Below, piece after piece: positions 2,061 to 64,000 of a stretch of 64,000 nt of DNA. Source of the DNA: an uncultured Candidatus Saccharibacteria bacterium (GTDB lineage: Bacteria; Patescibacteriota; Minisyncoccia; Phycocordibacterales; PALSA-1337); the NCBI GenBank assembly GCA_964492835.1, contig CAZBLC010000001.1:19596-83595 (forward strand), written 5' to 3'. How positions within the stretch are numbered: position 1 is the first letter of the stretch; the number at the start of each line of letters is the position of its first letter. The position numbers and the translations under genes were made by a program. Below the pieces are notes generated by a model, which saw only the letters and a program-made list of their open reading frames with translations, did no database searches and had not been told where the DNA came from.

Positions 2061-3575
2061 ATGACAAATACAAATTCAAAACAAGTTACCCTTATCGTCC
2101 TTGATGGATGGGGCTACAGAGAAGATACTACTGCTAATGCCATTAAAGCATCTAAAACTCCTAATTTTGATAGATTATGGTCAACATACCCACATACTCT
2201 ACTAAACGCTTCTGGATTAGCTGTAGGGCTTCCTGAGGGTCAGATGGGTAATAGCGAGATCGGACACCAGACAATTGGTGCTGGTAAGGTTATCGACACT
2301 GAACTAGTTAGAATTGACAAGGCGATTGAAACTGGTGAATTTGCAAAGAACAAAGCACTCATTTCCCTATTCGATCATGTAAAGAAGAATAACTCTACAC
2401 TACATGTTCAGGGTCTTTTGAGTGATGGAGGTGTGCACAGTCATGAAAATCATCTTTTTGCTTTTCTAAGAACTGCTAAGGATGCTGGTATTAAAAATAT
2501 CGCTATTCATATCTTTACAGATGGTAGAGATACTGCCCCACAAAGTGCTTCTAAGTATATTAAAGAACTAGAAGCAGTCCTACTTGAAATCGGTGTTGGA
2601 AAGATTGCATCTATATCTGGAAGATTCTATGCGATGGATAGAGATAATAACTGGGATAGATTGGCTAAGACTGAAAATGCAATCTTTGAATGTAAAGGAA
2701 ATGTATGTAGTATTACTCCTTCTGATTATGTTAGTAACCTATACAAAGAAGGTAAACTAGATGAACACCTGGAACCTATAGTATGTCTAGATTACGAAGG
2801 TAAAGGATGTAGTATCTCTGATAACGATGCTGTCTTTTTCTATAACTTCAGAGCAGATAGAGCACGCATGATTTCAAGTAAGCTTATGGAACGCCAAAAA
2901 GCACAGAATATCTGTTTTGCTACAATGACTGAATATGGAACAGAGTTTAAATGTTTAATTGCATTTCCTCCATCAAAGATTGAGACTACAATTGCTGCAG
3001 AGGTATCTAAGTCTAATCTTTCTCAAGCACATATCGCTGAGACTGAAAAGTTTCCTCATGCTACATATTTCTTAAACGGTGGTGTAGAGAAACCATATCC
3101 TGGAGAGAGACACATAATGCTTGATAGTAGAAAGGATGTACCAACTCATGATCTAGCACCAAAGATGAGAGCTGAGGGTATTGCTGATAAGGCTGTAGAG
3201 GAAATTAATAATGGTACAAACTTTATCTTCATTAACTTTGCAAACCCAGACATGGTTGGACATACAGCAAATGTTCCTGCGATTATAATTGCAATTGAAG
3301 AGACTGATAAGCAACTAGGTAGAGTTATCGAGGCTCTTGAGAAGAAAGGTGGTGTCGCTTTCATAACTGCTGACCATGGTAATGCTGAAGTAAATATTGA
3401 TCCTATAACTGGAAAGAATCATACTTCTCATACGATTAATCCTGTGCCTGCAATAGTTACATCACATGATGTTAAATTAAGAGATGGAGGCGGACTATCT
3501 GATATTGCACCTACAATATTGAAGATGTTTGGTATAGAGAAGCCAGTAGTAATGACTGGACAAAGTCTAGTTTAA
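2061..3575 (+). CDS. gpmI: 2,3-bisphosphoglycerate-independent phosphoglycerate mutase
   Basis: iPGM N-terminus LIVLDGWGYRED, ~504 aa. Follows eno, forming a glycolytic pair. Confidence 0.95.
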   Translation: MTNTNSKQVTLIVLDGWGYREDTTANAIKASKTPNFDRLWSTYPHTLLNASGLAVGLPEGQMGNSEIGHQTIGAGKVIDTELVRIDKAIETGEFAKNKALISLFDHVKKNNSTLHVQGLLSDGGVHSHENHLFAFLRTAKDAGIKNIAIHIFTDGRDTAPQSASKYIKELEAVLLEIGVGKIASISGRFYAMDRDNNWDRLAKTENAIFECKGNVCSITPSDYVSNLYKEGKLDEHLEPIVCLDYEGKGCSISDNDAVFFYNFRADRARMISSKLMERQKAQNICFATMTEYGTEFKCLIAFPPSKIETTIAAEVSKSNLSQAHIAETEKFPHATYFLNGGVEKPYPGERHIMLDSRKDVPTHDLAPKMRAEGIADKAVEEINNGTNFIFINFANPDMVGHTANVPAIIIAIEETDKQLGRVIEALEKKGGVAFITADHGNAEVNIDPITGKNHTSHTINPVPAIVTSHDVKLRDGGGLSDIAPTILKMFGIEKPVVMTGQSLV

Positions 3576-38616: not shown

Positions 38617-39081
38617 CTAGCAAGTAACGTCTGGTGCAGTACCTCCTAGCATAGTTGCTGCTCCTTCCTTAGTGTTACCTGTACTATCAACACAGTAGAA
38701 GTTACCTGATCCACCTCCTAGTCTAGCCTCAACTGCCCAAGCAGATCCACTTGTATAACATGTCAAAGTTGTTCCAGATGGATAACTGTCTGTATCTGAA
38801 AGATTTACGATTCCACTTGTTGAATCAGTCCAAGGTGTTGATGAAGGTGTTGCTGAACATCCGTTTGTATTCGCAGATGCTCCGTAGTTTCCTGGAGTAA
38901 CATAATATGTCTCCATAGCTCCTCTTATACTAGCCAATTGACCCTTGATCTTAGCATCATTACCCTTTGTTCTAGCTGTGTTCAATGAAGCTAATACCAC
39001 TGATGATAGAATACCGATGATAGCGATAACTACAAGCAACTCAATCAATGTAAAACCTTTTTCTAAATATGATTTCTTCAT
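38617..39081 (-). CDS. Type IV pilin (class III signal peptide prepilin)
   Basis: MKKSYLEKG|FTLIELLVVIAIIGIL, the canonical prepilin peptidase site with Glu+5. 154 aa, C-terminal Cys pair. Confidence 0.9.
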   Translation of the reverse strand: MKKSYLEKGFTLIELLVVIAIIGILSSVVLASLNTARTKGNDAKIKGQLASIRGAMETYYVTPGNYGASANTNGCSATPSSTPWTDSTSGIVNLSDTDSYPSGTTLTCYTSGSAWAVEARLGGGSGNFYCVDSTGNTKEGAATMLGGTAPDVTC

Positions 39082-41891: not shown

Positions 41892-43613
41892 TTATAGTTT
41901 ATTTACTTCTTCAAATGGTATCTTTCTCTCGAATGCTTTAATCATCGCATCCTCCTTAATTGAGAGCATTCCCTTTTGTCTAAGCAGTCTACTTATCTCA
42001 AGTTCAGTAGGACTCTTTAGAATTACACTCTCTATCTCCTTGTCCATTCTAAATGCCTCAAACACAGCCATACGTCCTCTTGTTCCCTTAGGACAATCTG
42101 GAGTTGGATCAATACCATATACAGTATCCTTAAATGGAATATCTCCTTTGTACTGTTCTGGTAGATCTGAGAATTGCTTATCAATTATCATTTTTATACT
42201 TCCATCAACTGGTATTGGTTTACCTGAATTTGGAGGTAGCATAGATACAAGTCTCTGAGCGATAGCTAGAACAAGAGTTGGTGCGATAAGGTAAGGATCC
42301 ACACCCATGTCGATAAGACGAGGGATGACACCAGCTGAGTTGTTGGTGTGGAGTGTAGAGAATACCAAGTGTCCTGTTAGAGCAGCTTGTACAGCTAGCT
42401 GAGCAGTCTCCTTGTCTCGGATCTCTCCGATCATGATCACATCAGGGTCCTGGCGTAGTGTTGTTCTAAGTCCAGATGCAAATGTATACCCAATCTCAGC
42501 ATGCACCTGAGACTGACTTACCCCATCCATGTTGTACTCGATAGGGTCTTCGAGAGAAAGTACGTTCATTCCCTCCTTATCAACTTCATTCAACATAGAG
42601 TACAGAGTTGTAGACTTTCCAGATCCCGTAGGTCCAGTAATTAGGATTAGTCCGTATGGTCTAGCTATCGCCTCTTTAACCAATTCTAGATTCTTTGGTG
42701 TAAGTCCGATCTCATCGATCTTCTTTACTCCCTTTTCTTGATCCAAGATACGCATCACGACTTTCTCTCCATAATATGCTGGGAATGTAGATACACGGAA
42801 GTCTATCTTTCTTCCATCGATACGTGCAGAGAATCTACCGTCTTGAGGCTTTCTCTTTTCATCAAGCTTCATGTTACAAAGCACTTTGATACGAGCAACA
42901 ACCGCATTGTGTACTTGCGGTGGTAGTACTAGACTTGTATTAAGTGTTCCATCAACACGGAAACGCACTCTAATCTTGTCACGCATATGCTCAATGTGCA
43001 CATCGGATGCATTTCCCTCAGTTGCATAACGAACGATAGTTGCCACAATCTTAACAACCGGAGCATCTTCTATAATTACAGTATTCTGCTTCTTGTCATT
43101 CGTAGTCTTTGCATTCTTTAGATCTACAGTACTGTCCTTATCAACAGACAATACAGACTCTAGTTCTGTAAGAGCCTTAGATACTTCTCCTCCAATTCCT
43201 TTATATGACTCTAAAACTTTTTGGTAGTCATCAATAGTTATTAAAAATACTTTGTATGGAACATTACCCTTTGAAGCAATGAAGTTTAGAGCATCTCGAG
43301 CTTCTATATTATCTGGGTTAACTATACCCACTTCAAGTACTCCTTCACTTAGACCTATCGGTACGAACTTATAGTGTGCAGCTGATTCTTCTGGTATATA
43401 GTCTAGAGCTTCAAATGGTACTGTAGTCTCACCTAAACTTCTTGTAGGTATGTTAAGTAGCTCTCCACGTGCAGCAAGTATATCTTCAGGATGTACTCCC
43501 TTTTCAATCAATACTTGATCAAGATTCTCACCGTCTGCAGTAAGTTTCTTTATCTCAGTTATATCATCTTTTGTTAAAAGATTTTTGTTTAAAAGAATAT
43601 CTGTAACACTCAT
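41892..43613 (-). CDS. pilB: Type IV pilus assembly/extension ATPase (GspE family) with N-terminal T2SSE_N domain
   Basis: Walker A GPTGSGKST, Asp box, His box GHLVFSTLHTN. 573 aa. Confidence 0.92.
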   Translation of the reverse strand: MSVTDILLNKNLLTKDDITEIKKLTADGENLDQVLIEKGVHPEDILAARGELLNIPTRSLGETTVPFEALDYIPEESAAHYKFVPIGLSEGVLEVGIVNPDNIEARDALNFIASKGNVPYKVFLITIDDYQKVLESYKGIGGEVSKALTELESVLSVDKDSTVDLKNAKTTNDKKQNTVIIEDAPVVKIVATIVRYATEGNASDVHIEHMRDKIRVRFRVDGTLNTSLVLPPQVHNAVVARIKVLCNMKLDEKRKPQDGRFSARIDGRKIDFRVSTFPAYYGEKVVMRILDQEKGVKKIDEIGLTPKNLELVKEAIARPYGLILITGPTGSGKSTTLYSMLNEVDKEGMNVLSLEDPIEYNMDGVSQSQVHAEIGYTFASGLRTTLRQDPDVIMIGEIRDKETAQLAVQAALTGHLVFSTLHTNNSAGVIPRLIDMGVDPYLIAPTLVLAIAQRLVSMLPPNSGKPIPVDGSIKMIIDKQFSDLPEQYKGDIPFKDTVYGIDPTPDCPKGTRGRMAVFEAFRMDKEIESVILKSPTELEISRLLRQKGMLSIKEDAMIKAFERKIPFEEVNKL

Positions 43614-47202: not shown

Positions 47203-47760
47203 TTATTCTTTGTCAGAAATAATACAACCTAATGGCAAAGAAAATGAGTCGCCATTATTTAAAATACCCCAGTCGATTTCACCTGACACATCGAGCTCCA
47301 TTCTCATCTTTGTAATTAAATTACTTCTTAGAGGCACAGGACCAGGTGTTGTTGTTGAAAATACTATGCTCAAGTAGAGCTGTGGGATATTCTTATCATC
47401 GGATAACAGAGCAAGCTTACCAAGCGAACGATTTATATCTAGATCTGTTGGAGGCTCCGTCTTGCAAAACTGTCCAACATAGGTCTTGTTATCAAAACCT
47501 AAATTCATGGTCAAAATTTTTGAATCTACAATCTCTAAGGCTTGCATAAAAGTTTCCAGTTTGAGACTGTATAATTCCTTAGATTTATATTCTTCAAACC
47601 CCCACAATATACCAATAATAGGTATTAGTATCTTAAGTACGTCCACTACACCACTATTAATAGTCTCACTTATATTGTCACATCCAAAATTAATCATCCT
47701 GTACAAAGAAGCAATATAAATTAAGGCTATGGCAGAAGTTAGGACAAGGAAAAAAATCAT
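47203..47760 (-). CDS. Hypothetical membrane protein
   Basis: The ORF opens at 47856 but its first ~32 codons overlap the same-strand tRNA. The MMIFFLVLTS start near 47760 is more plausible. Confidence 0.35.
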   Translation of the reverse strand: MIFFLVLTSAIALIYIASLYRMINFGCDNISETINSGVVDVLKILIPIIGILWGFEEYKSKELYSLKLETFMQALEIVDSKILTMNLGFDNKTYVGQFCKTEPPTDLDINRSLGKLALLSDDKNIPQLYLSIVFSTTTPGPVPLRSNLITKMRMELDVSGEIDWGILNNGDSFSLPLGCIISDKE

Positions 47761-47767
47761 CATTCTG

Positions 47768-47854
47768 CGGAAAGAGCGAGATTCGAACTCGCGGTTCCAA
47801 TTAAGGAACGGCGGTTTAGTAAACCGCTGGTTTAAACCACTCACCCATCTTTCC
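47768..47854 (-). tRNA. Ser-type (class II, long variable arm, G73) tRNA; anticodon loop reads UUACUAA, apparent anticodon ACU
   Basis: Manual fold: acceptor GGAAAGA/TCTTTCC, 3-bp D-stem, anticodon stem GCGGT/ACCGC, variable stem-loop GTTCC-TTAATT-GGAAC, T-arm GCGAG-TTCGAAT-CTCGC. CCA not encoded. Confidence 0.7.
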
Positions 47855-47916
47855 ATACTTTCCCATATACTATACGGAAATTATGATACTTTTACAAATA
47901 TTGATAGTATATATGG

Positions 47917-54669: not shown

Positions 54670-54689
54670 ATATTATTAATTATTCTAAG

Positions 54690-54777
54690 CGGAAACGGAG
54701 GGATTCGAACCCTCGGAGCCTTTAAGGGGCTCACATCTTTAGCAAAGATGGTCGTTAAACCACTCCGACACGTTTCC
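54690..54777 (-). tRNA. tRNA-Ser (anticodon GCU)
   Basis: Manual fold: acceptor GGAAACG/CGTTTCC, anticodon stem CATCT/AGATG, loop TTGCTAA, long variable arm GAGCC-CCTTAAA-GGCTC, T-arm GAGGG-TTCGAAT-CCCTC, G73. CCA not encoded. Confidence 0.85.
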
Positions 54778-54778
54778 A

Positions 54779-55840
54779 TTAAATCAACTTCTTTAAGAAC
54801 TTATTATTACCTGTACCAATTATTTTGAGGTATTTTGACACATCACTTTTGTTCTCTATTCTCACATCATTACCATCTTTTGTTATTCTTACACAAAACC
54901 CTAGTTTTATCAAAATATCCGCAACCGACATTAGGACTAATTTACTTTTACTTGTAAATGCAATCTTGTTATATACATACACCTTTTTACCAACTCTATA
55001 TGAATGCTTGAATACACAACCATCAGTATCCACCAGCCCTCTTACACAAGCTATCGATAGCTTGCTATCCTTCTTTATCCATTCTGGTATATCGATATTA
55101 TTCTTTATTTTGTTACCTGATTTAAGACCAATACTTTTACAGTAATCGACTAGATTCCTTCTATGTATAACTAAATCTACAGCTCTAAACTTCTTATGCT
55201 TATACACAATAGAATCAATACCGAATAAATCTTTAATTATTTTCTTTACATAAGTGACATATTCTTTATCAGCAACAGAATCTAGAGTTATTCTAACTGA
55301 ATAATTACTGATACTTCCATCTCCAATTATAATTCCAACGAATTCAGCAAGCTTCTCTGATTTAACAGGTATTAATATTTCTTTTCTATCGTAGATAGGG
55401 TTAATAGCATGTATACCCTTTTCATTCCACCATTTATACCAAGCGTCCTTTCTTTTTTCTTCATTACAAATACCGCCATACTTTTTAAATCTTACAGTTC
55501 CACCCTTTTTTCCTGCTACACTTAAATGATCTATCCATTTAATTACTTTGATATCCTTAGGTACAGAAATACCACTTCTCGTAGATAGTTCCAGTAGGGC
55601 GTTATGTGAAATTTTTCTTTTCTCCTTAGCCCAGAGATATATAGTTTTGTGACTGACACCAAATAGCTTCGACATTGATGAATACGACAATTTTAGCTTA
55701 TTCTTGCAAGCTAAAATGTATTTAGACTGTTGTCCTTTCTTGAATATCACCCTGTCTAATACATACGCTTCTGACATGGTTCTATTATACCATTTAAAAC
55801 AAAACACCTGATCAATCGACGCAGGTGTTCTAGACTTCAT
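54779..55840 (-). CDS. Free-standing LAGLIDADG homing-endonuclease-like protein (double-motif) with N-terminal helix-turn-helix
   Basis: Two LAGLIDADG motifs (GIIIGDGSIS and GLVDTDGCVF), N-terminal HTH (SYSSMSKLFGVSHKTIYLWAKEK). Stop codon 1 nt from the tRNA-Ser 5' end. Confidence 0.8.
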   Translation of the reverse strand: MKSRTPASIDQVFCFKWYNRTMSEAYVLDRVIFKKGQQSKYILACKNKLKLSYSSMSKLFGVSHKTIYLWAKEKRKISHNALLELSTRSGISVPKDIKVIKWIDHLSVAGKKGGTVRFKKYGGICNEEKRKDAWYKWWNEKGIHAINPIYDRKEILIPVKSEKLAEFVGIIIGDGSISNYSVRITLDSVADKEYVTYVKKIIKDLFGIDSIVYKHKKFRAVDLVIHRRNLVDYCKSIGLKSGNKIKNNIDIPEWIKKDSKLSIACVRGLVDTDGCVFKHSYRVGKKVYVYNKIAFTSKSKLVLMSVADILIKLGFCVRITKDGNDVRIENKSDVSKYLKIIGTGNNKFLKKLI

Positions 55841-58512: not shown

Positions 58513-58588
58513 TGGTGCGCGCGCCAGGGGTCGAACCTGGGACCGCTCGAGTATAAGTCGAATGCTCTACCAACTGAGCTACGCGCGC
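58513..58588 (-). tRNA. tRNA with anticodon UAU (Ile-decoding AUA by anticodon), CCA encoded
   Basis: Manual fold: acceptor GCGCGCG/CGCGCGC, D-arm GCTC-AGTTGGTA-GAGC, anticodon stem TTCGA/TCGAG, loop CTTATAC, T-arm CCAGG-TTCGACC-CCTGG, A73, CCA. Confidence 0.75.
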
Positions 58589-59347: not shown

Positions 59348-61243
59348 CTAGTTCGAATGCTCTATATCCAACTTCTTCTTAAGTTCGATACCATGAGCTA
59401 CTATAATAGTCTCATATTCATCTCTTTCGATATTCTCCACCTCTATCAATCTCTTAGCTATAGCATCTAATGCTGGCTTATGTGTCTTTACTACATGCTC
59501 TGCTTTTTTATATGCTTCATCCATTATGCGAGCAACTTCTCCATCAACTTCACTACTTAACTTCTCTGAGAATACATTCTCTTCTACTCCTTTTCCAAAC
59601 ATAGCTCTTCCTCCAGAACTCTCAAGTGCTAGTACCCCTATCTTCTCTGACATACCATACTTTGTAACCATATCTCGAGCTAGAGCTGTAGAAACTTGTA
59701 GATCATTAGATGGTCCTGTTGTAACATCGTTAAACATCATTTTTTCTACAACATATCCCCCAAGTGATACTGCTATATCATCCAAGAATTCTTTCTTGCT
59801 CTGCATCTTCCTGTCATCAAGTGGCAAGTGAAGTGTATATCCTGCAGCTCTACCGCGTGAGATTATAGATATCTTATGTACTGGATCTGCAAATGGAAGC
59901 ACTGAAGATACTAGAGCATGTCCTGCTTCATGATATGCAGTTATCTCCTTCTCTTTCTTTGATAGGATATGACTCTTTCTCTCTGGTCCAAGCATTACTT
60001 TCTCAATTGCTCTGATTAGATCATACTGTGCCACCTTTGATCTGTTCTCTCTTGCTGCAAGTATAGCCCCTTCATTCATTAGAGAATATAGGTCTGCGCC
60101 AGAAAATCCTGGAGTTCTTTCAGCAATAACTTTAAGAGCTACATCTTCAGCAAATGGTTTCTTAGCTGAATGTATTTTTAATATCTCCTCTCTGTCATTT
60201 CTGTCAGGTAAATCAATTGTAACTCTCCTATCAAATCTTCCTGGTCTAAGTAGGGCTGGATCAAGTACATCTGGTCTGTTAGTTGCAGCCATTACAATCA
60301 CCTTTTCATTAGGCTCAAATCCATCCATCTCAACTAGTATCTGGTTTAGTGTCTGTTCTCTCTCATCATTACCTCCTCCAGTTCCTGTACCACGTGCGCG
60401 TCCTACAGCATCGATTTCATCTACGAATATAATTGCTGGTGCTGCTTGCTTTGCCATCTTGAACAAATCACGAACACGACTAGCTCCAACTCCGACAAAC
60501 ATTTCAACGAACTCTGATCCTGATATTGAGAAGAATGCTACTCCAGCTTCTCCTGCAACAGCACGAGCTAGAAGTGTCTTACCTGTTCCTGGTGCACCCA
60601 TAAGTAGTATTCCTTTTGGTATTACTGCTCCGATTTCCAAAAACTTTTTAGGATTCTTTAGAAAATCTACAATCTCTGCAAGTTCTTGCTTTGCTTCTTT
60701 TGCTCCAGCAACATCCTTGAAAGTAACTTTCTGTTTAGTGTCATCTGGAAGAATGATACGAGCCTTAGATTGACCGAATGAGAATGCTTGCATTCCTGAA
60801 CCCTTAACTTGTCTTGTAAAGAACCATACGATGAGTATTAGGAAAAGTATTGGTACTATAAATGGAGCGAGTTGGATAATCCAATATGCAAATCCACCAG
60901 GTCCTTCTATATCAATCTTCAATGCATTGAGCTTCTCTGCTGTTATACCATATCTTGCAAATGTCTCAGTAACTGCAGAGTCTGTCTCCTTCTTTGCTGT
61001 CTTTGTAGTTTTGTCAGTATATAGAGCAATTACATCATCTCCTCTTACAGTTATCTCACTTACCTTTGAAGCATTAATATCCTTAACTAATTCTGATATG
61101 GCGATACTTGTAGATTTACCACCCTGTTCAGCGATATATGCAAAGGTATTTGTGATTATAAACAAGACCAATATAGCTAGAGCTATTGAATTTACTAACC
61201 CAAAACGACTAGGTTTCTTTTGATTTTCAGTTTTTTTAGACAT
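59348..61243 (-). CDS. ftsH: ATP-dependent zinc metalloprotease FtsH
   Basis: N-terminal TM pair, AAA+ Walker [19 protein letters not shown] zinc motif. Confidence 0.95.
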
Positions 61244-61290
61244 GTGTTGATTATACTTAAAATGTAGAAAAATGCTATGATAATTCTGTT

Positions 61291-61740
61291 ATGTCAGACA
61301 GGTTAATATACAACAAGAAAATATCAGTAGATTATGAAATTCTCGAGAAATTCGAAGCTGGTATTGAGTTGCTTGGACTTGAGGTTAAAAGCCTTAGAAA
61401 CAACCAAGGTTCCCTATTGGGATCTCATATTACTGTGCGTGGTGGTGAGGTATTCATAATCGCCCTTAATATTCCTCCGTATCAGGTAAAGAATACGCCT
61501 AAGGAGTATAATCCTGAGAGAAACAGGAAGATACTACTTAAGAAAAGTGAGATACAAACTCTAGCTAGTTTGGAGGCAAAGAAGGGTTTGACAATAGTGC
61601 CAGTTTCAATGTATAGTAAGGACAAGAAAATCAAGGTTGAAATCGCCGTTGTTCGCGGTAAGAAGAAGTTTGATAAGCGCGAGGACATTAAGAAGCGAGA
61701 GGTAAATCGTGATATTCGAAGAGAGTTTAAGGATCGTTGA
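61291..61740 (+). CDS. smpB: SsrA-binding protein SmpB
   Basis: 149 aa SmpB fold sequence with a basic C-terminal tail. Immediately followed by the tmRNA gene. Confidence 0.92.
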   Translation: MSDRLIYNKKISVDYEILEKFEAGIELLGLEVKSLRNNQGSLLGSHITVRGGEVFIIALNIPPYQVKNTPKEYNPERNRKILLKKSEIQTLASLEAKKGLTIVPVSMYSKDKKIKVEIAVVRGKKKFDKREDIKKREVNRDIRREFKDR

Positions 61741-61752
61741 AAATTAATACAT

Positions 61753-62171
61753 GGGGATGAAAGGCCTCGACAGTTGAGGTACTCAATATTGTGCATTGTA
61801 GAGCTCCGTCACCTCTTTAAAATGACGGAAATGTTAGATGCTAAATCAGCTATAACAAAGGCGAAGTCTACTGTGTCTCCATATTTTGGAGCTAATAGCT
61901 TTGCTTTCGCTTACGCAACAGTTTAATACTGTTCCCTAAACGACGTTCTACACTAGGTTTCGAAACTAGTGTTAGAGTGATATAACCTTCGAATTGGATT
62001 GTATTCACTTCCCTGCTTACAATCTGAAACTCTGGGAATCGCTTACATATATTTTGTTTACTTTATAGTATGTAAGTTAAAAGAGGGCGACCTCGCTAAA
62101 GTTTTCTATACAATGTAGATCCAATATTAGATTTCATCTGCACCCGAGTTCGATTCTCGGCATCTCCACCA
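61753..62171 (+). ncRNA. ssrA: Transfer-messenger RNA (tmRNA, ssrA)
   Basis: 5' GGGGATG pairs with 3' CATCTCC-ACCA. tRNA-like T-arm GAGTTCGATTCTC. Internal ORF ending in a TAA within hairpin ACAGT-TTAAT-ACTGT. Confidence 0.85.
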
Positions 62172-62258
62172 CATTTGACACAGGTACTATTTAATGATAG
62201 TGTGTTTTTAGCTTGAACGTGCTGGTTTGCAACCAAAATAACAATCCAAGGTAATTCA

Positions 62259-62642
62259 ATGAATCTCACAACGGAACTTCTGACGCCATTTATTGGTGGT
62301 CAAATTGAAATCCAAAACGAAGGTCAAGGCTATCTCTATCGCGGTCAAATAAAGTCTGGACGCGTCACCAGTGGCGAACTTGTCATCGAACTGGACTGGA
62401 TGGGCAAATGCGAGGGTTTTCCCTCTAGCCCCAGCAAGTGGGTAAAGGACGACACAGAAGATTGGGCGATTAGCCTCCAGATCAGCGGTGTCAGCAACAT
62501 CGGTCCTAGTCGTCCTGAAATCGGAGGCGGCGATCGCATCTGCATCAACTGTCCCAGTATTGGAGAGCTCATTGTTCTTTATCCTGCTGATGGGAGTAAG
62601 CTCGACCCTGCAAGGATCGAAGGACTTCAGTTGGCGGCATAA
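62259..62642 (+). CDS. Hypothetical protein encoded in a GC-rich (~50%) segment
   Basis: 127-aa ORF. Composition departs strongly from the ~33% GC background. No recognised domain. Confidence 0.4.
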   Translation: MNLTTELLTPFIGGQIEIQNEGQGYLYRGQIKSGRVTSGELVIELDWMGKCEGFPSSPSKWVKDDTEDWAISLQISGVSNIGPSRPEIGGGDRICINCPSIGELIVLYPADGSKLDPARIEGLQLAA

Positions 62643-62770
62643 ACCAACTTTTACAATACAATCTGAATCTCTGACCTCCTCAAGAAAACCTTCGTTAGGT
62701 TCTCTCGAGGAGGTCTTTTCTTTTACATGTTAAATAACCATACTCTACCCATCTACACATTTTCTTAAAA

Positions 62771-63265
62771 ATGCTATCATTATCCCCGGAGAACACCATG
62801 CACTCAATCAAACTTGTTCTTGTAATGTTAATGTCTACACTGACATTAATGCGAGTTTCAGGACAGAGTGATATCTGGACTGAAGCGTTCAAACTTGGTC
62901 ACATCCACACCAATGACTGTAGGATCAATTGCTTTGAAGAAGCAGATCATGAAAATCATGATTCAGTTATTGAGTCCAGATATCAAGGAAACAATGTCTG
63001 GTCAGTGAGACTCATCAATACCTTCATGCCGAAGGTTGATCCAGCACATGTTGAATACAAAGAAAGGAATGGATTCAAACTGATGCAGTATGAAGGTGGT
63101 AGTTTCTACTCCACACAAAATGGTAGTAGGACCAAAGACATTTTGGCATATCACCTGAGATTGAATACCAATACCCTTCTGGAGGTTGTGAGGATTGAAT
63201 TCAATCAACCAGCAGTCCAGAACATGGATACGATGGTAGGCATTGCGATAAGGACATCAAGATGA
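62771..63265 (+). CDS. Hypothetical secreted protein (signal-peptide-like N-terminus)
   Basis: MHSIKLVLVMLMSTLTLMRVSGQ signal-like N-terminus. Part of the same atypical-composition segment. Followed by a strong terminator. Confidence 0.4.
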   Translation: MLSLSPENTMHSIKLVLVMLMSTLTLMRVSGQSDIWTEAFKLGHIHTNDCRINCFEEADHENHDSVIESRYQGNNVWSVRLINTFMPKVDPAHVEYKERNGFKLMQYEGGSFYSTQNGSRTKDILAYHLRLNTNTLLEVVRIEFNQPAVQNMDTMVGIAIRTSR

Positions 63266-63270
63266 AAACG

Positions 63271-63296
63271 AAATCCCACCGAACTCGGTGGGATTT
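63271..63296. terminator. Bidirectional rho-independent terminator
   Basis: aaatcccaccg-aact-cggtgggattt perfect 11-bp stem flanked by A-run and T-run. Serves the + ORF ending 63265 and the minus-strand micro-ORF ending 63302. Confidence 0.65.
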
Positions 63297-63301
63297 GTTA
63301 T

Positions 63302-63388
63302 TTATTTTCTTCTCTTAGTTGTCTTCTTTGTAGTTTTTTTAGATTTCTTTGAAGACTTCTTAGTTACTTTCTTTTTTGCTTTTGCCAT
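63302..63388 (-). CDS. Candidate 28-aa lysine-rich microprotein (MAKAKKKVTKKSSKKSKKTTKKTTKRRK)
   Basis: ATG...TAA micro-ORF read on the minus strand, flanked by a terminator. Composition-only evidence, no SD-like sequence seen. Confidence 0.25.
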   Translation of the reverse strand: MAKAKKKVTKKSSKKSKKTTKKTTKRRK

Positions 63389-63550
63389 TAGAGTGTAAAT
63401 ATTTTTTTGATTAAAATTATTTTATCGACCACTGTTAATATATTAACATTAAAATATAAATATTAATTAAAAAAATAAATAAAAGTGTGCATAACTTTTA
63501 TTTTTAAAATACTTCTTGCTATATTAATTTTCAAACTGTACACTTATTGA

Positions 63551-64000
63551 ATGAATAAAAAAAATATTATCTTATCTTGTTGGATTATTTTGGTTGTAAT
63601 AATATTGGGATTCTTTCTGAATTCGTATTGTGAATATAAAAAAGAAGTTGTGGCTGTAACTATTGATACATCGACAGATCAAGAGATAGCAGTATCTACT
63701 CCAGTTAAAAAAGATAATTTGTTAGCAGATACAGGTAGGGAAAAAATGTATAAAGGAATAAAATTGCAAACTGGTTATAATAACTATTGGAATACTATTT
63801 ATGGTGACCTAGAGTATAGTCCAATCTTGATTGATGGTGACCATTTTATAGTTGGCTCGAATGGTTATGGGCCGAGGGCTCAGGTGTTTGCTTTTAATCT
63901 TAAGACTGGTAAGGAATTATTACTATACAATGAATATACTGACAGGCTCTATATAAATCAGATTATAAAAATTGGAAATACCATGTTCTTTTCAACTGGT
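63551..64000 (+). CDS. Partial CDS (5' portion) of a signal-anchored protein, runs off the window end
   Basis: Open frame from ATG 63551 to the window end. N-terminal hydrophobic segment ILSCWIILVVIILGFFL. Confidence 0.4.
   Translation, partial: MNKKNIILSCWIILVVIILGFFLNSYCEYKKEVVAVTIDTSTDQEIAVSTPVKKDNLLADTGREKMYKGIKLQTGYNNYWNTIYGDLEYSPILIDGDHFIVGSNGYGPRAQVFAFNLKTGKELLLYNEYTDRLYINQIIKIGNTMFFSTG

Follow-up and report, generated by a model that had tools for sequence, protein, structure and literature searches.

In Dehalococcoides, genomic islands (ssrA-GIs) lie in tandem directly downstream of ssrA, the single-copy gene for transfer-messenger RNA (tmRNA), in a region that is highly strain-variable (McMurdie et al. 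2011, PMC3146451). They are bounded by direct repeats of some 20 bp taken from the ssrA 3′ end, with the serine recombinase DsiB beside the left attachment site (attL), and some of them have no integration module and are regarded as cis-mobilizable (PMC3146451). The locus described here lies in a 64,000-nt stretch of a contig from an uncultured Candidatus Saccharibacteria bacterium (the window, to which all coordinates refer) and consists of a 587-bp strain-variable cassette with one gene, ORF127, at the 3′ end of ssrA (62181..62767, + strand). The cassette is probably an integrase-less mini-island, in which one promoter-bearing, terminator-ended gene occupies an ssrA attachment (att) site that elements with a large serine recombinase (LSR) would use in this clade.

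The likeness to the Dehalococcoides islands lies in tandem units, ssrA repeats of about 20 bp and an LSR at ssrA (all three here in relatives), and in units without an integrase and variability between strains. Those islands, however, span many kb, whereas the units here measure 0.55–0.9 kb with one gene each, and the unit in the window has no integration module. Further differences are that the hosts here presumably belong to the Candidate Phyla Radiation (CPR), that the 3′ end of the LSR gene overlaps the tmRNA gene, and that a −35-like TTGACA lies within or beside the repeated core. An LSR gene next to attL, as in the Dehalococcoides type, is absent from the window; of 84 related loci, 8 have one at this site. 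Cis-mobilizable elements (CIMEs), which accrete at tRNA genes of Streptococcus, are decayed integrative and conjugative or integrative and mobilizable elements (ICEs/IMEs) that are mobilised with a conjugative partner (PMC5704250). The units at ssrA resemble them in that genes for integration and transfer were lost or never present, in being att-bounded at the 3′ end of their target, and in that newer elements push older ones outward; they differ in showing neither conjugation genes nor remnants of an ICE. By the features that define a CIME, the window has no recombinase, an intact attL and a degenerate right attachment site (attR), so present-day mobility is doubtful.

In staphylococcal cassette chromosome mec (SCCmec) elements, CcrAB recombinases of the LSR type act at orfX, that is, at the 3′ end of a conserved single-copy gene, with direct repeats of 15–20 bp; composite and tandem elements are known, including recombinase-less pseudo-SCC units. 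Target gene, hosts, size and cargo all differ from those at ssrA. The same parallel has also been drawn for the Dehalococcoides islands (PMC3146451). Integron cassettes are similar as single-ORF units of 0.5–1 kb (ORF, open reading frame) that form co-oriented arrays at one recombination site and carry no recombinase of their own. Unlike integrons, the loci here show no IntI-type tyrosine recombinase or attI, their boundaries are copies of tRNA or tmRNA (t(m)RNA) 3′ ends and not attC hairpins, and the unit has its own promoter-like element; the absence of attC together with IntI/attI is judged from the tyrosine-recombinase motif and the boundary type, and no formal attC model was run. Prophage morons, described by Hendrix and colleagues, are single genes with their own promoter, an intrinsic terminator and deviant base composition. 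The unit layout is the same here, but there are no phage genes nearby, no relative in IMG/VR and no PHROG match. That elements integrate at ssrA, accrete in tandem and may lack a recombinase is already known; new here are the very small cassettes, their setting in CPR bacteria, an LSR gene that overlaps ssrA, and a large uncharacterised cargo family with two regularities.

The strain-variable slot at the 3′ end of ssrA

The ssrA gene (61753..62171, + strand), whose 3′ end is the attachment site, was recognised at full length by ARAGORN and by Rfam RF00023 (110.3 bits, E 4e-43). Two sister strains, L037 and L139/L141 (L141 is identical to L139 where they overlap), were found through homologues of ORF164, the second of two ORFs downstream of ssrA; the tag peptide of the tmRNA is identical in L139. 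L037 aligns with the window over 62117-62179 (95%) and 62767-63505 (91%), and L139 over 59573-62180 (87%) and 62768-63505 (91%). The slot between these common breakpoints (62180 | 62767/8) holds wholly different DNA in each strain: 587 bp with ORF127 in the window, 776 bp with an unrelated 175-aa gene in L037, and 2383 bp with three unrelated genes in L139. As the breakpoints are common and the contents differ, the variable unit is 62181-62767, with ORF127 only. ORF127 is at this site in neither sister strain, and among 100 loci that share this tmRNA 3′ end only 3 have a relative of it downstream. Two hallmarks of a t(m)RNA island, insertion at the tmRNA 3′ end and polymorphic content among close relatives, are present. 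Searches of Pfam, PHROGs, NCBIfam and PADLOC gave no match for ORF127, ORF164 or the alternative cassette genes.

The initial annotation had described the DNA after ssrA as a single two-ORF insert; only the ORF127 unit varies, and ORF164 is kept in all sister strains. It had also taken conservation of the same ORFs at this position across the lineage as a sign against horizontal acquisition. As ORF164 is kept at its position in the sisters (~91%), such conservation applies to ORF164; ORF127 differs.

The cassette begins 10 nt past the tmRNA 3′ end and comprises a 5′ UTR, ORF127, a terminator-like hairpin and an att remnant. Its left junction, the att core (62161..62180, +), consists of the last 11 nt of the tmRNA (CATCTCCACCA) followed by CATTTGACA, with 62180 as the last base common with the sisters. 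A promoter-like element read from the sequence (62175..62203, +) has a consensus −35 box TTGACA (62175-62180), a 17-nt spacer and a weak −10 box TAGTGT (62198-62203), from which the gene may be expressed; it fell below the threshold of the promoter scan. TTGACA also stands 2–5 nt past the t(m)RNA end in L003 (as a perfect TTGACA-17-TATAAT), L008, L037 and L139. ORF127 itself (62259..62642, +; 127 aa) is the cargo gene, belonging to an unannotated CPR protein family with a predicted PH-like β-barrel fold. It is followed by a terminator-like hairpin and T-run (62673..62724, +), with arms CCTCCTC (62675-62681) and GAGGAGG (62707-62713) and an inverted-repeat self-match over 62673-62715; this hairpin is missing from the terminator scan list because its loop is too long. 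At the right edge of the cassette lies a degenerate, attR-like remnant of the tmRNA 3′ end, ATACTCTACCCATCTACACATTTT (62741..62763, +), whose core CATCTACACATTTT at 62750-62763 compares with CATCTCCACCACATTT at 62161-62176. A separate 17-nt sequence inside the tmRNA gene, TACAATCTGAAACTCTG (62018-62034), recurs with one mismatch at 62657-62673, 15 nt past the ORF127 stop; the tmRNA copy is also present in L139, the second copy is cassette DNA, the location is not a usual att position, and the recurrence may be due to chance.

Repeats and recombinases in related loci

The initial annotation had seen no att repeat of the ssrA 3′ end downstream. This stands for exact repeats, as none of at least 11 nt was found downstream in the window, and exact k-mer and strict local searches within the window returned only chance matches; it does not extend to the degenerate remnant at 62741-62763. 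Degenerate copies of the tmRNA end occur at the right junction of all three alleles, just left of the common AAAATGCTATCATTA: besides the copy in the window, L037 has ATCTCCCAA and L139 has ATCTATAACCAAGTATTT. In L139 a 22-nt sequence, ATCTCCACCAAATTTGACAGAC (the tmRNA end and 12 nt more), at position 2596 is directly repeated at 3160 with one deletion, and the two repeats bound the first cassette of that slot, a 543-bp unit with a single gene. In the set of 84 distinct related loci, the terminal 14 nt of the tmRNA recur in direct orientation (≤2 mismatches) 8 times within 3 kb downstream and 0 times upstream.

Similar boundaries recur around members of the ORF127 family. L008 starts inside the tmRNA 3′ end, as recognised by Rfam, and carries the remnant TTTGATTCCACCCCCTCC past the terminator of its family gene. 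In L004 remnants of the tmRNA 3′ end stand on both sides of the family gene, with the real tmRNA 0.94 kb upstream; the family gene of L038 likewise stands between two remnants, of which the distal one, AGTCCACCAAGTTGACA, is followed by the next gene. L113 holds an array of three cassettes in the order tmRNA, GIY-YIG gene, remnant-TTGACA, gene, remnant, remnant-TTGACA, family gene; the first ORF after its tmRNA is small, and its GIY-YIG (YhbQ-like) assignment was made by eye only. At tRNA genes, a 51-nt repeat containing the 3′ end of tRNA-Glu flanks an 878-bp single-gene unit in L033 (score 70 versus 19.6 ± 3.3), two tRNA 3′-end remnants bound tandem cassettes in L034, one of them a methyltransferase cassette, and three tRNA T-arm copies bound two cassettes in L003. 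L035 has a 36-nt flanking repeat. In the window the tandem layout amounts to one cassette and ORF164, with only the degenerate remnant between them.

Inverted copies of the tmRNA 3′ end (GTGGAGATG...CCGGGAATCGAA) are found 100–200 nt downstream of ssrA in L048, L073, L077, L090, L124, L126, L132 and L133. They are sometimes split by a GC-rich hairpin and are convergent with ssrA; a 16-nt search gave 4 downstream and 1 upstream.

Recombinase genes are present at the same site in relatives. In the eight loci mentioned above (L060, L070, L089, L098, L099, L121, L131 and L135), an ORF of 515–545 aa lies directly downstream of ssrA and convergent with it, its 3′ end overlapping the last 32–77 nt of the tmRNA gene; the Pfam domains Resolvase, Recombinase and Zn_ribbon_recom identify these ORFs as LSRs. 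The LSR element of L060 spans about 5 kb, with the distal repeat 5.0 kb away (score 38 versus 22.8 ± 2.6). In L004 the 116-aa ORF that separates ssrA from the ORF127 homologue is what remains of an LSR C-terminus, with 93% identity to the L121 protein over its residues 439-540.

Composition, the ORF127 family and the flanking genes

The base composition claimed for this segment, with a jump in GC directly after ssrA, is confirmed: the window has 33.9% GC and ORF127 holds its maximum. The top 384-bp window of all 64 kb, 62265-62648, has 51.0% GC (mean.339, sd.041; ~4 sd above), and the runner-up reaches.474 at 42251. The stated level of ~50% holds for ORF127 (50.5%; GC1.57, GC2.45, GC3.50) and not for ORF164 (40.6%). 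Over 61 ORFs GC3 averages.268 (sd.052), with.50 in ORF127,.43 in ORF164 and.41 in smpB; measured against the 59 other ORFs of the window, ORF127 has a GC3 z of 5.4. The GC3 of smpB (.41 against a mean of.27) is.35 in L139, and the compositional anomaly may extend slightly upstream of ssrA.

Codon usage departs from the rest of the window as had been annotated, through C- and G-ending four-fold codons in ORF127 and ORF164 that are near-absent from native genes. Native genes, including the highly expressed enolase, pilin, rplT and rpmI, prefer T- or A-ending codons in four-fold boxes (C.00–.04). Four-fold C is.35 in ORF127, against.00–.08 in native genes, with G at.12; ORF164 has C.21 and G.17, so that its combined C+G of.38 compares with.03–.16 in native genes, and the slot genes of L139 and L037 have C at.19–.26. 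Given this C-rich usage across the slot contents and ORF164, all of them look imported from GC-richer genomes. Four hypotheses on ORF127 were rejected: host translational selection, as native highly expressed genes shun C in four-fold boxes; an RNA or DNA element embedded in the coding sequence, as GC3 is evenly high along the gene; simple GC-biased conversion, as the excess is in C and not G; and a very recent donor, as the nearest DNA relative is 70% identical. The octamer GCGATCGC, which had been pointed out in this segment, is present once in the window, at 62530. A HIP1-like meaning was rejected, the octamer being no HIP-like repeat and spelling instead the GGC-GAT-CGC codons of a conserved G-D-R motif of the ORF127 family.

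That family is large. A first search gave 27 homologues. A profile search extended this to 335 clusters (90% identity), and an exhaustive one yielded 665 clusters (50% identity, E ≤ 1e-3), 364 of them with E ≤ 1e-10, none annotated. Members occur in 26 GTDB species genomes, nearly all Patescibacteria and mostly Saccharibacteria. ORF127 is a putative cytoplasmic protein, and a confident model gives the family a PH-like β-barrel fold; a profile search against PDB sequences gave no match, nor did models of the bacterial PH-like and YojF (DUF1806) families. As a low-confidence guess, the protein could be an accessory binding or protective (immunity-type) protein. No family member was found in the viral contigs of IMG/VR and no match in PHROG, and all-against-all clustering of neighbouring proteins revealed no conserved partner gene or integrase beside the family gene. 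A minority of members (P0134, P0099, P0138/P0054 and P0014/P0053) have C-terminal extensions of 100–160 aa. These were set aside as uninformative; they are heterogeneous (a cupin, a His_Phos histidine phosphatase and two unknown conserved tails) and look like fusions with neighbouring genes.

The first regularity of the family is its composition. The family gene is GC-richer than its own locus in 30 of 31 cases, and in 20 of 30 loci no other ORF has a higher GC3 (median z 3.0). The enrichment affects C specifically (four-fold C.42 versus.27, G.25 versus.23; C in NNY codons.67 versus.40), and the C-rich synonymous sites are retained in hosts of 34% to 56% GC. The second is its position: a co-oriented t(m)RNA 3′ end lies ≤200 nt upstream in 7 of 33 distinct family loci, compared with 9 of 405 (2.2%) other ORFs there (binomial P = 7e-6). 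The seven neighbours are two tmRNA genes, two tRNA-Ala(UGC), tRNA-Leu(UAG), tRNA-Leu(CAA) and one truncated tRNA, and about half of the family loci have a t(m)RNA or remnant within ~1.3 kb. In L002 and L003 the family gene and its promoter are identical and the upstream DNA differs, with the junction exactly at the tRNA end. The saccharibacterial members L013, L014, L027 and L024 share a conserved 5′ UTR of ~70 nt, in which a small hairpin (ATAAGC..GCTTAT) is followed by TTTGTACACCA; the tmRNA-linked members (the window and L004) have a different common UTR, AGCTGAACRTGYTGGTTTGYAACC.

To the right of the cassette, ORF164 (62771..63265, +) encodes a putative secreted protein, for which gene callers place the likely start at 62798 (155 aa). 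It lies at the same position in L037 and L139/L141 with ~91% nucleotide identity, and its homologues form only one 90%-identity cluster in 5.8 billion proteins. As a conserved flank with foreign codon usage, ORF164 is probably an older cassette now fixed in the lineage, and at most an older, fixed acquisition. The strong bidirectional terminator that had been reported to close the segment is indeed there, as an intrinsic terminator detected on both strands (63271..63296; 11-bp stem, 6 GC pairs) and shared by ORF164 (+) and a lysine-rich ORF (−); it is kept in L037, where the two stem arms have changed together (cacc/ggtg to cgcc/ggcg). The lysine-rich ORF, of 28 aa (MAKAKKKVTKKSSKKSKKTTKKTTKRRK; 63302..63388, − strand), is convergent on this terminator, belongs to the conserved flank and has no Pfam match. 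It lies in the spacer past the terminator (63300-63550), which is very AT-rich (19–21% GC) and kept in the sisters. A second synteny breakpoint falls at 63505, beyond which the sisters go on with a 35-aa ORF, a PLD gene, infC, rpmI and rplT, and the window differs, with an ORF starting near 63553 before its end at 64000. The DNA past 63505 may be another insertion.

Upstream of ssrA, the backbone consists of smpB (61291..61740, +; Pfam SmpB, 4.3e-48), preceded by ftsH (59348-61243, minus strand); an exact look-up of the SmpB protein of the window gave no match. The ftsH-smpB-ssrA synteny is present in at least 25 more distant related metagenome loci, where homology to the window ends at 62169-62182. 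Elsewhere in the window, a free-standing 353-aa ORF with LAGLIDADG_3 homing-endonuclease domains (54779-55840, −; 7.7e-15) lies directly upstream of tRNA-Ser(GCT) (54689-54777, −). ARAGORN also reported a tRNA-Ser with the unusual anticodon ACT (47767-47854, −), overlapped by a 217-aa ORF (47203-47856), and a tRNA-Ile with anticodon UAU (58513-58588, −).

Origin of the cassette and its significance

In the proposed course of events, ssrA in this clade (presumably CPR/Patescibacteria) would be a target of LSR-carrying elements, whose integration would regenerate the tmRNA 3′ end and leave a copy of it at the far boundary; repeated events would then give tandem arrays of small cassettes. The ORF127 cassette may have come with an LSR element that later decayed or was excised, or it may have been mobilised in trans as a CIME-like unit. 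It would have been acquired from a CPR donor of higher GC once this strain had diverged from its sisters, which would be the reason for its un-ameliorated C-rich codon usage, and ORF164 would be an earlier cassette, since fixed. That foreign DNA occupies an ssrA integration site, as had been suggested at the outset, is upheld by the allelic slot contents, the 22-nt duplication in L139, the LSRs in relatives and the codon usage.

Several observations weigh against this origin. The attR-like copy in the window matches at ~14 of 20 nt, which is not significant alone; tblastn with the 8 LSRs found none in the 64-kb window, nor was one present in the L139 slot; and a regex search for the tyrosine-recombinase box II motif was negative in the window and in 1.1 Mb of related loci. 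The 587-bp unit, with its one 127-aa ORF, has no integrase of its own next to the att site, and no circular or excised form or empty site was observed. Family members are ≥15% apart in nucleotides, so a recent donor was not identified, and the family-wide GC3 excess (20 of 30 loci) is not explained by a single recent transfer. Alleles could moreover be exchanged by homologous recombination of the flanks without a site-specific step. Taken further, this last point would make the slot a replacement hotspot, where cassettes would be swapped between strains by DNA uptake and recombination between the tmRNA gene as left anchor and the ORF164 flank as right anchor, with no site-specific integration of this cassette. 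Such a hotspot would suit the 87–95% conservation of the flanks between strains with their sharp breakpoints, the type IV pilus or competence-like genes of the window (PilB-like, 41892-43613; pilin-like, 38617-39081), the lack of a recombinase in the window and the degenerate attR remnant, but it leaves unexplained how cassettes first arrived at t(m)RNA 3′ ends, why clean 22-nt and 51-nt duplications of these ends exist, and why LSR genes overlap ssrA in relatives. It is considered unlikely as an account of the whole, and flank recombination is likely a secondary route of spreading, not an alternative origin.

That ORF127 is native and vertically inherited, its GC being due to selection, through very high expression or codon adaptation or through a nucleic-acid element in the coding sequence, is a still more improbable reading. 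The GC3-rich state of the family in most hosts (top in 20 of 30 loci, median z 3.0) could be read in this way, as could a C-specific excess of the kind that matching to GNN anticodons predicts, −35 boxes that match the consensus, strong Shine-Dalgarno sites at many cassette loci, and a site after tRNA genes that could exploit their strong promoters. The gene is, however, missing from the site in both sisters and from 97 of the 100 loci that share this tmRNA 3′ end, its usage is the opposite of what is optimal in the host (four-fold C.00–.04 in highly expressed genes), and its evenly high GC3 shows no locally constrained synonymous segment, so that a native gene is largely refuted for the window. 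The initial annotation had also raised a chimeric join. The abrupt GC step would fit an assembly chimera at 62172 between a low-GC and a higher-GC genome, as would the many ORF127-family members at contig ends (e.g. L003, L008, L011, L015 and L038), yet an independent Logan assembly (L001, 2484 bp, from SRR12762285) agrees with 61394-63877 at 99.88% identity, low-GC DNA common to the sister strains resumes past the cassette, and the junctions are natural breakpoints that fall at att-like sequences. The contig ends in other samples lie inside tRNA or tmRNA genes, as predicted by strain polymorphism at an integration site; a chimera is thus hardly credible.

A broader alternative, which is speculative and more doubtful than an LSR-element origin, would treat the unit not as island debris but as one of a distinct class of promoter-bearing single-gene mini-cassettes (0.55–0.9 kb) circulating among CPR/Patescibacteria. 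Recombinases acting in trans would insert them at many tRNA and tmRNA 3′ ends in integron-like arrays, the C-rich codons would mark continual flux between lineages or selection for host-independent expression, and the PH-like cargo would be a widespread accessory factor, for example of immunity or defence type, of these episymbiotic bacteria.

Integration at ssrA is textbook knowledge; the unusual features are the small size of the units, their lack of an integrase and their occurrence in CPR bacteria, which have reduced genomes and among which little is known of how genes flow. This site offers a testable system, with an att core of ATCTCCACCA-N3-TTGACA, candidate LSRs overlapping ssrA and three cassettes between identical breakpoints. 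It also flags a family of 665 clusters, with C-rich codons in most hosts and ~10-fold enrichment directly 3′ of tRNA and tmRNA genes. If the cassettes prove to be autonomous, they would add a new layer to the CPR mobilome and supply compact LSR/att pairs.

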